A DNA stretch of 64,000 nt, taken from a virus (Duplodnaviria > Caudoviricetes). Every line of letters begins with the position of its first letter. Within the stretch, counting starts at the first letter, position 1. Made by a program: the position numbers and the translations under genes. Shown piece by piece: positions 53,847 through 55,386 of this stretch. The notes under the pieces are model-generated. The model made no database searches. It was not told the origin of the DNA and was given only the letters and a program-made list of their open reading frames with translations. The stretch is from the IMG/VR virus record IMGVR_UViG_3300033070_001518, positions 16,412 to 80,411 of that record; one strand, written 5' to 3'.

Positions 53847-54338
53847 TTATTTTTGTTTTAGTATTTTATTGATTAAGACATTTCTCATGCCTTTAGTTGA
53901 TTCGATATGATAAATTGGTTTTATTCTATATTCATATGAGTATCTTTTAATCCACGGATCTTCAGTACTTTTTAATTGAATGATTGAATCCAACGCTGTT
54001 TCCCTTGAGTCATAAATTTTATGAGGACTTGAATTTCTCCATTTAGATTCGGAATTTGTAGATCTTCTTTCAATAGCCCATCCATATACTTCATAGGATT
54101 CATCATCTAGTTTGAAAACACTTTGGGATTCAATGTGTGGTAAATCTTGTAATTCGTATGAATATTTCTGATATTTAAAATCTGGAAGAGCAATCTGACT
54201 TTTCTTGCAATAGACGCATTCATAGTCAACCTTTCCTTGTTTGATGAGGTAATATTTCCCATTCAGATATATTTCCCTATTAAATTTTCTAAGAATCTTG
54301 TTCAGAATCTTGATAATTTTGGTCTCAAATTTTGACAT
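53847..54338 (-). CDS. Hypothetical protein with shared C-terminal motif
   Basis: CxxC; ends MRNVLINKILKQK; overlaps the HD gene. Confidence 0.6.
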   Translation of the reverse strand: MSKFETKIIKILNKILRKFNREIYLNGKYYLIKQGKVDYECVYCKKSQIALPDFKYQKYSYELQDLPHIESQSVFKLDDESYEVYGWAIERRSTNSESKWRNSSPHKIYDSRETALDSIIQLKSTEDPWIKRYSYEYRIKPIYHIESTKGMRNVLINKILKQK

Positions 54339-54912
54339 ACTGATCGATTATTTTTTTACCCTTTTTGAGGATTGATTTGTACTTTATTTTGAATGAGTCC
54401 GATTCGAATCCACCAAACATTTTAGCATTAGAATTTATTTCACATAAACCAACTAGGAGTAAAGTTACATAGTGTGGAATTTGGCAAAATTCTTCTATCT
54501 GTGAGGATTTGAGTATGTGTATATCCATATCATGCTTGATAAGTTCAGAAGCTACACTATCATCAAATAAACTATTAAAGATCTGATATGATTCTTCTGC
54601 GTGATTGGGGAACTGTCTTTTACCATCTGAATTGATAGTTAAACACTTCCACTTTCCACAATCATGAAATATGGTATATAACTTTAATACTCTATCACTT
54701 GGCAGTGATTTGATGATTTGATCTTTGTGTGTGTAGATCCAATCTGGTATTCTCCATTCGTATTTTAATGAAGATCCGTATTTTAAATGATTTAGTAAAT
54801 CAAATAGGTGGTTTTTAACGGAAAATCCGTGTTCGAGTGTTGATTGACCTAATGTTTGAGGACAATCTTTCATTTTCCTTATTAATTCCTTTTTTGTAAT
54901 CTAGTTGCTCAT
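54325..54912 (-). CDS. HD-domain phosphohydrolase with in-frame amber (TAG) at codon 4
   Basis: ATG AGC AAC TAG ATT ACA AAA AAG GAA TTA ATA AGG AAA ATG (TAG at 54901-54903), in frame with the tracked ORF from 54873; H...FHDCGK...HAEES...HDM motifs. Confidence 0.75.
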
Positions 54913-54916
54913 AATG

Positions 54917-55252
54917 TTATTTGTTTTTTAGGGATAGTGGTAAATTTGAAAATGATTTTCTTATATCGGGGTCGCCAAAAAGACAAAGTGAAGTAAACTG
55001 GTCCACATCAGGCTCAAAAAACAGTGAGCATGGGGTTCGTTTACTCCACTTTTTATGGAGTTCTAAAAGATGTTCTTCAGATTTACAAGAAAGACAGATT
55101 ATCGAATTGGATGTATTTTTCCAATGATTGAATTTTTCAGGATGTTGGTGTGCGAAGTCCGCAACAGAATGTGAAGACTGAACAACCTGATACCCAGAAC
55201 TTATATCGCTTCGGGTAATGACGATTAATTTTGATTCGTTTATCTAGCTCAT
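54917..55252 (-). CDS. Pth2-like peptidyl-tRNA hydrolase with in-frame amber (TAG) at codon 3
   Basis: MS*INESKLIVITRSDISSGYQVVQSSHSVADF...W...SIICLSCKSEEHL...FFEPD...TSLCLFG...FSNLPLSLKNK*; TAG at 55244-55246; no other ATG in the frame. Confidence 0.8.
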
Positions 55253-55287
55253 GATTCTATATATTAAATTATTTTAATTTGTTTTTG

Positions 55288-55368
55288 CGCCTCCTACAGG
55301 ATTCGAACCCGATAACACTTAGTTTAGAGCCAAGTTCCACACCCAAGGCGGAATTAAGTTTAGGAAGC
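55288..55368 (-). tRNA. Atypical tRNA with CUA anticodon (amber suppressor)
   Basis: Acceptor GCTTCCT/AGGAGGC, discriminator G, anticodon stem (A)CTTGG/CTAAG(T) with loop CTCTAAA (CTA at 55325-55327), T-loop TTCGAAT, enlarged D region; no encoded CCA. Confidence 0.85.
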
Positions 55369-55378
55369 TTATTTAATA

Positions 55379-55386
55379 CAAATATA
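55379..55386 (-). promoter_or_regulatory. Bacteroidota housekeeping -7 promoter box driving the suppressor tRNA
   Basis: TATATTTG (TAnnTTTG) 10 nt upstream of tRNA base 1, with TTTA 20 nt further upstream (TTTG-like -33). Confidence 0.55.

Follow-up and report, generated by a model that had tools for sequence, protein, structure and literature searches.

How does a phage express two enzymes whose reading frames both run into a stop codon within their first four codons? The question is raised by a locus on the minus strand of a 64,000-nucleotide (nt) stretch of viral DNA (hereafter, the window), which comprises bases 16412–80411 of an 80.4-kb IMG/VR virus record (contig G000). Here, a transfer RNA (tRNA) with the anticodon CUA is followed by a gene with a Pth2 fold and a gene with an HD fold, each opened by an ATG and interrupted almost at once by a TAG. 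Judged from comparisons across phages, the locus is a conserved phage module, built of one putatively UAG-reading tRNA and two (in some lineages three) genes with UAG in their first 2–5 codons. We consider it probable that the phage’s own suppressor tRNA gates the synthesis of both proteins.

The first-pass annotation of the window had read a promoter box, a CUA tRNA, two TAG-bearing frames, and a 4-nt gap between these frames on the minus strand, and all of these elements are present. A promoter-like −7 box (TATATTTG, 55379–55386, minus strand) matches the TAnnTTTG type, the −7 promoter consensus of Bacteroidota, and lies 11 nt upstream of the 5′ end of a non-canonical CUA tRNA of 81 nt (55288–55368, minus strand; anticodon 55327–55325). 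The Pth2-fold gene, 111 codons plus stop (54917–55252, minus strand), begins 35 nt after the tRNA and opens ATG AGC TAG ATA, with TAG as codon 3 (55246–55244). The TAA that ends it is separated by 4 nt from the ATG of the HD-fold, phosphohydrolase-like gene of 195 codons (54325–54912, minus strand), which opens ATG AGC AAC TAG ATT, with TAG as codon 4 (54903–54901). No terminator was found between the tRNA and the first ATG, and this, together with the 35-nt spacing, suggests that the tRNA and the two genes probably share one transcript in the window. A TAnnTTTG-type box also lies 12–22 nt upstream of most homologous non-canonical tRNAs, and its conservation suggests both a promoter belonging to the tRNA itself and a Bacteroidota host. 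An ATATATA box (55258–55264, minus strand) ends 5 nt before the Pth2-like ATG, and TATA-rich boxes are similarly found 3–5 nt before the ATG in loci L006, L029, L045, and L150 and in Tenacibaculum phage pT24.

The interrupting codon is the same throughout the family. In 47 of 47 viral loci with a Pth2-like relative, TAG, never TAA or TGA, stands just before the domain, and an ATG lies 1–4 codons upstream of it in 46 of them. We also counted conservation at the DNA level in 52 distinct Pth2-like loci, ranging from 25 to 67% GC and including the cultured phages Bxz1, Myrna, and pT24. The order ATG, 0–7 codons, TAG is kept in 49 of these loci, with the ATG 1–4 codons upstream in 47 of the 49, and the base after TAG is a purine in every one (49/49). 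A purine after UAG is a favourable context for amber suppression. Both TAGs had been noted to share the context C-TAG-AT, which holds in the window, while among the relatives only the purine is kept. No canonical start occurs within 12 codons past the TAG in 34 of the 49 loci; hence, the segment carrying the invariant K8 and T13-R14-D16 can be produced only through or at the TAG. The Pth2-like frame in the window had been said to contain no other ATG, and its first canonical start comes 80 codons past the TAG. Database proteins that begin M-x-Q-I correspond to the TAG read as Q, and in a member of 53% GC, whose gene was called from a GTG, the opening ATG ACG TAG ATT is hidden upstream of that start and is directly preceded by a CUA tRNA. 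The TAG-free members are L163, L160, and L164, the latter two GC-rich and bacterial-looking. Just upstream of the TAG-free Pth2-like genes of L160 and L164 (58–67% GC) lies a tRNA that ARAGORN calls as Ile with the unusual anticodon AAU (L160:380–458; L164:375–451), and the Pth2-like family may associate with odd tRNAs generally, beyond amber suppressors.

The CUA element is best understood through its family. A search for a T arm combined with an anticodon arm bearing CUA retrieved look-alikes from many related phages, where they precede the homologous gene; all were missed by ARAGORN. Seventeen distinct sequences align on one architecture (alignment A2): an 8-bp acceptor stem, a connector of 7–10 nt (RA-NYTAAW), a D stem of 5–6 bp that ends in a small GG loop, a 5-bp anticodon stem that follows without a nucleotide 26 and mostly bears a 9-nt loop (N-YUCUAAA-N), a variable loop of 5–7 nt, and a 4-bp T stem. 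Pairing is satisfied in 96% of cells, with compensatory changes at 19 of 22 pairs; none of 500 shuffles was as good, and slid controls reached 33–48%. Helix 1 (8 pairs) is 97% paired with seven covarying pairs, and the 4 pairs of helix 4 are 100% paired. Position 31:39 is mismatched in 15 of the 17 members, which widens the anticodon loop to 9 nt around a central CUA; the window copy is one of the two exceptions (G-C). It has an 8-bp acceptor, a connector of ~10 nt, a 6-bp D stem, an anticodon stem of 5–6 bp with the loop CUCUAAA, a 4-bp T stem, no encoded CCA, and a G as discriminator, where the family has A73. It thus departs from the canonical cloverleaf (7-bp acceptor, 5-bp T stem, 2-nt connector, 4-bp D stem) and retains canonical loop features: a T loop GGTTCGAATCC of the GTTCGAAT type, U before the anticodon, and a purine after it. 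Folded alone, the element has an unremarkable minimum free energy (z −0.69), and at an 80% threshold, ARAGORN reports it as one of about 40 calls, most of them spurious. Scored with a covariance model of the tRNA family (R1), the window copy reaches 77 bits (E 8e-19), and the model finds exactly one RNA of this shape, always with CUA, in each of the whole genomes G006, G007, and G010. The family tRNA and the Pth2-like gene always point the same way, and the tRNA comes first in all loci but L052/L054. Because of the family covariation, we take the CUA element to be a real tRNA despite the failure of standard detectors; the earlier call of a CUA tRNA therefore stands by virtue of its covarying family and falls as that of a canonical tRNA, which neither ARAGORN nor the Rfam threshold supports.

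In 32 of the 49 gated loci, a CUA tRNA of either the canonical or the new type is found at a distance of no more than about 3 kb, inside a locus of ~6 kb. The genomes G001, G006, G007, G009, and G010, which are 85–100% complete, have exactly one CUA tRNA each, at distances from 2 kb to 128 kb from the gene. When the amino acid of the suppressors was sought from their likeness to other tRNAs of the same phage, no canonical CUA tRNA exceeded 73% identity to a co-resident one, too little for an assignment. Cultured phages carry the same arrangement. Bxz1 (NC_004687, L158) has ATG TAG GTG and a CUA tRNA 300 nt downstream (gt155, annotated as ‘tRNA-OTHER’, L158 4657–4729); Myrna (NC_011273, L188) has GTG TAG GTG and a CUA tRNA 130 nt downstream (gene 86, annotated as ‘tRNA-Ser’, L188 3472–3543); and pT24 has ATG AAA TAG ATA opening a Pth2-HD fusion, with a ‘tRNA-Sup’ 2.6 kb upstream. 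Among the Pth2-like proteins of these phages are Bxz1 gp154 and pT24 BPT24_235. The co-occurrence of an early TAG with a CUA tRNA, which the first-pass annotation had proposed to look for in homologues, is thus borne out, and the early stops are not random. On these comparisons, the arrangement of TAG, tRNA, and gene is real and not due to chance.

The Pth2-like protein was assigned by profile and structure. It scores 28.5 bits against Pfam PTH2 (PF01981; cut-off 23), and a profile comparison with archaeal Pth2 (PDB 2zv3) gives an E-value of 5e-12. Its structure model has a predicted local distance difference test score (pLDDT) of 96, and the top 15 Foldseek matches are all Pth2 (archaeal) or Bit1, at TM 0.65–0.75. 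The catalytic motifs of archaeal and eukaryal Pth2, G-K and D-A-G-x-T, are absent: in the alignment with 2zv3, G-Y (G20-Y21), already noticed opposite G-K in the earlier reading, and E-P-D take their places. R14, Q25, H28, W44, E80, and T87 are invariant in the family, and from its sequence, the chemistry may differ from that of known Pth2. A full hidden Markov model (HMM) search returned 1454 hits, with 518 cluster representatives at E<1e-10; more distant relatives reached in this way have the same opening motif in their DNA. PHROGs labels both the Pth2-like and the HD families as ‘unknown function’.

The second protein had been called an HD-domain protein, a name upheld by its invariant H..HD..D residues and its fold and only weakly reflected in its Pfam score, which for the window protein is below the cut-off (PF01966, 13.9 vs. 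22 bits); some homologues have a precomputed PF01966 hit. H28, H83-D84, H104, D128, and H132 are invariant in 51 HD-family sequences, and the model is all-helical (pLDDT 96). In structure, it comes closest to the C-terminal part, with the tRNA-binding HD region, of a class II tRNA nucleotidyltransferase (3WFO; Z 13.6 over 164 residues, root-mean-square deviation 4.8), with a Foldseek E-value of 0.012 and an HMM E-value of 0.002 against this enzyme class, so that an early guess of likeness to the HD domain of CCA-adding enzymes was close to the mark. Second is bacterial GlyRS beta with its tRNA-binding HD domain (Z 11.1), followed by generic HD hydrolases; the matches to GlyRS-beta HD, PhnZ, PgpH, GppA, and SpoT span Z 8–11. 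In every separate full-length HD homologue, TAG occupies codon 2–4 and is followed by ATT or ATA. The ATG at 54873, once regarded as a fallback start, encodes a conserved internal Met that is also found inside Pth2-HD fusions and is missing in L034, whose HD gene has no fallback start after the TAG; that suggestion was therefore abandoned. In eight loci, the two proteins are fused in one open reading frame (ORF) of about 300 amino acids with a single TAG at its start, which argues that the two enzymes work together. Judging by the models, both folds suggest activity at tRNA 3′ ends, the Pth2-like protein by ester hydrolysis and the HD protein by phosphoester chemistry.

A third, unrelated family of 85 amino acids lies just downstream of the Pth2-like gene and starts ATG(-NNN)-TAG-A.. 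in three lineages (L153:1975–2232; L162:581–838; L062, about 3340–3590). No homologue of it was found in the window’s contig or in the five whole genomes.

The rest of the genome uses TAG as a stop codon. CheckV rates the record as 31% complete, ~80 kb of an estimated 260-kb genome, which makes it a fragment of a jumbo phage. The window has ~30% G+C and codes densely under code 11; its long ORFs are unbroken in that code, and TAG terminates 14–15 of about 90. Reading TAG as a sense codon moves coding coverage only from 0.930 to 0.932 in G000 and leaves it at 0.923 in G001, a 385-kb relative that is 95% complete; tiled ORFs ending in TAG number 15 of 96 and 37 of 423, respectively. Across the module-bearing genomes, TAG ends 9–16% of long ORFs, and TAA terminates about 75% of genes in the AT-rich ones. 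In the related genomes that are 95–100% complete, 32–75 long ORFs each end in TAG, TAG as sense adds no coding density, and ORF merges under that reading are at chance level. Throughout G000 and G001, the start–TAG motif precedes a long open frame only in the Pth2-like and HD genes; in four other genomes, many frames preceded by TAG came up as unvetted hits. The motif ATG-N-TAG-AT occurs 26 times elsewhere in the 80-kb contig, against a shuffle expectation of 19 ± 4, and long frames follow the TAG only in the two genes. These results agree with the earlier view that the recoding is local and not genome-wide. Membership of the phage among those of code 15, in which TAG is recoded, was considered and rejected: there is no gain in density, TAG is in use as a stop, and internal TAGs are few.

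How, then, might the module operate? In the reading that we favor, the tRNA would be transcribed from its own promoter, and ribosomes would initiate at the ATG of each gene. When charged suppressor is lacking, RF1 would terminate translation after a peptide of two or three residues; when it is present, an amino acid would be inserted at UAG, and translation would go on to the full-length Pth2-fold and HD-fold proteins. The output of both enzymes would track suppressor activity, the equivalent of a natural feed-forward lock. Gating predicts what is seen at these loci, namely the exclusive use of TAG, the following purine, and the very early position, where a failed attempt costs only two or three codons. 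We infer that the CUA tRNA is charged and decodes these UAGs, and also the activities of the enzymes and the purpose of the lock. The preferred purpose is to tie enzymes that clean up tRNA ends or peptidyl-tRNA to the time and extent of stop-codon suppression; a timer, or the switch or feedback loop envisaged in the first-pass annotation, are other candidates. A more elaborate version, which we regard as rather doubtful, is a homeostat: the 8/4 tRNA, structurally orthogonal and with its enlarged anticodon loop, would read UAG, and the unlocked enzymes would deacylate, or trim or heal, the 3′ end of the same tRNA, thereby holding read-through at a tolerable level. By analogy, and with equal reserve, such a homeostat could be seen as a natural counterpart of RF2 autoregulation, in which a tRNA is paired with its own ‘off’ enzymes.

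Several observations weigh against a suppressor-operated gate. Genuine TAG stops neither avoid a following A nor have an excess of back-up stops, so that strong general suppression, which would be costly, is not evident; UAG suppression is probably weak, brief, or context-limited. In G014 (155 kb, rated 83% complete), gated genes are present and no CUA tRNA was detected; this contig appears to be part of a larger relative of roughly 385 kb. Contigs G011 (28% complete) and G015 (18%) also have no CUA tRNA, an absence that in fragments is not evidence. The codon after TAG is start-like (ATT, ATA, GTG, or ATG) in 40 of the 49 loci, and L161 has an ATG directly after the TAG. In Bxz1 and Myrna, whose Pth2-like genes are annotated from the GTG directly after the TAG, a GGAGG/GAAGG Shine–Dalgarno box lies 7 nt before that GTG. 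Thus, some translation may bypass the tRNA, and to judge by these sequences, gating in the actinophages may be partial. In L163, a TAG-free Pth2-like gene stands beside a CUA tRNA, which indicates that the link between tRNA and enzyme does not depend on gating alone. Start-like codons, Shine–Dalgarno boxes, L161, and L163 all speak for a start–stop leader, in which ATG-N-TAG is a mini-ORF and the enzyme is made from the adjacent start-like codon by re-initiation or non-AUG initiation; the CUA tRNA would not be needed for this and would be linked to the gene in some other way, for instance, as the substrate of the enzyme. We find this explanation, including the alternative role it gives to the tRNA, unlikely. 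Nine of the 49 loci have GTA, GTT, AAC, ACT, ACA, or GAC after the TAG, and several of these (L035, L061, L065) lack a canonical start for 57–83 codons. A leader of this kind also leaves unexplained the exclusive use of TAG in AT-rich genomes that otherwise prefer TAA, and the company of a CUA tRNA across phages of 25–63% GC. Read-through by the tRNA and re-initiation may coexist.

The tRNA itself supplies further points against the gate. The core of the window copy is unusual; ARAGORN, in default and intron modes, finds no tRNA gene in the window; and Rfam RF00005 gives 24.4 bits, under the gathering score of 29. Together with the aberrant connector and D region, and with RNA-library contigs that cover both genes and not the tRNA (a weak point; such contigs cannot show absence), this would fit an element that is decayed or non-decoding, be it a pseudogene, a regulatory RNA, or a recombination site, with the genes silent or the suppressor encoded elsewhere. 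Such a fate is improbable: in the 17 sequences, compensatory changes affect all four helices and the YUCUAAA loop never varies, their orientation is that of the Pth2-like gene, most are preceded by a promoter box of their own, and three whole genomes have no other RNA of this shape; moreover, 8/4 tRNAs act as amber suppressors in E. coli (PMC5389517). It is more improbable still that the phage is, or is becoming, a code 15 phage, and that the two genes are simply the recoded ones within a 31%-complete fragment. CUA tRNAs are typical of TAG-recoded phages (10.1101/2021.08.26.457843), and the record does cover just 80 kb of an estimated 260-kb genome; against this stand the near-complete relatives, in which TAG ends dozens of long ORFs and density and merges give no sign of recoding, the restriction of the motif before long frames to two genes in G000 and G001, and the fixed position of TAG at codons 2–5, unlike its scattered sense use in recoded phages. 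Finally, next to no weight attaches to the idea that the TAGs are assembly or sequencing errors or that the genes are pseudogenes. Nothing but the stops themselves speaks for it. Contigs from two independent studies agree in every letter across both TAGs and the tRNA, which excludes sequence error at 55244 and 54901, a concern of the first-pass annotation; the TAG is kept in 49 of 52 lineages, and both proteins have confident models and invariant residues of catalytic type.

Two conserved neighbors follow the module on the minus strand. A gene for a 163-amino-acid protein (53847–54338), whose start overlaps the HD stop, has homologues in nine related loci, where they adjoin the Pth2-like and HD genes or separate them, and a gene for a 161-amino-acid protein (53354–53839) has homologues after the HD gene in 14 related loci; neither protein has a match in Pfam, PHROG, or Atlas. 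Just downstream lies a gene for a 639-amino-acid protein with a TPM-phosphatase domain (127 bits; 51403–53322, minus strand) that is not conserved in related loci. An HNH endonuclease gene (55424–55981, plus strand) diverges from the tRNA promoter, and its homologues in L040 and L005 are also upstream of the module on the opposite strand. Elsewhere, the window encodes a T4-type RNA ligase 1 (38401–39648, minus strand; PF09511 plus an Rnl1 C-terminal domain), a full DnaK/Hsp70 (34807–36666, minus strand; 822 bits), and a phage-encoded PRPP synthetase (59947–60867, minus strand). Upstream of the window, genome bases 72–1253 hold a canonical tRNA array of Leu-CAA, Thr-CGT, and Arg-CCT plus weaker candidates; this array abuts the contig start, and the tRNA set of the phage is thus truncated in this record. 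At the other end, positions 62001–64000 have 42% G+C, compared with about 30% elsewhere, and a long plus-strand ORF runs from 62030 off the end.

The module resembles several known systems and differs from each. The prfB gene, encoding RF2, is autoregulated through an early in-frame UGA, and infC through its AUU start. As in prfB and infC, an early in-frame signal in the mRNA would sense termination or initiation capacity and set the output of a translation factor; unlike prfB, the module has no frameshift, its sensor would be read by a dedicated tRNA, and what it shows of such a circuit is the early in-frame stop. The bar minigenes of phage λ are stand-alone, toxic, and cause peptidyl-tRNA drop-off. 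The module shares with them ORFs of two to four codons and a link to peptidyl-tRNA hydrolase, whereas its mini-frame runs in frame into the hydrolase gene itself. TAG-recoded phages (code 15, TAG = Gln; crAss-like, Lak, and others) carry their own suppressor tRNAs (10.1101/2021.08.26.457843, PMC9523058), and the module has in common with them a phage CUA tRNA, in-frame TAGs, a host of standard code, and a proposed translational regulation. It differs from them in that the standard code is kept in the module genomes, where TAG is a real stop (9–16% of long ORFs), and in that just two or three small genes, with enzyme folds for tRNA ends in place of late or lysis functions, have TAG at codons 2–5. 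The (8/4) and (9/3) tRNAs known as ‘allo-tRNAs’ occur in phages, and versions engineered to carry CUA act as amber suppressors in E. coli (Mukai et al. 2017, PMC5389517). The module tRNA is like them in its 12-bp acceptor branch split 8/4, its long D stem and small loop, and its occurrence in phages; unlike them, it has a variable region of 5–7 nt in all 17 members in place of a long Ser/Sec-like arm, a 7–10-nt connector, an anticodon loop that usually has 9 nt, no base at position 26, and CUA as its sole anticodon. To the phage (8/4) tRNA-His type with A73, it is similar only in outline. Engineered feed-forward gates, in which an early amber codon and a co-regulated suppressor tRNA remove leaky expression (PMC7969014), follow the same logic; those are synthetic, and the phage module would be their natural counterpart. 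Our literature search turned up recoded phages, ‘code-change modules’, 8/4 tRNAs, and synthetic amber gates, and no description of this module.

If read-through proves true, the module would be a natural tRNA-operated translational gate in phages of standard code, and it would assign a function to the suppressor tRNAs that such phages carry. It would represent, in minimal and portable form, the code switching that has been proposed for recoded phages, and possibly an evolutionary first step toward recoding. A large Pth2-like family (518 representatives at the threshold given above), now mis-annotated with truncated N-termini or under code 15, would be defined, along with a new non-canonical tRNA architecture missed by standard tRNA finders, and the module would offer ready-made orthogonal parts for synthetic biology. 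The cultured phages Bxz1 and Myrna, which infect M. smegmatis, and pT24, which infects Tenacibaculum, make the gating directly testable.

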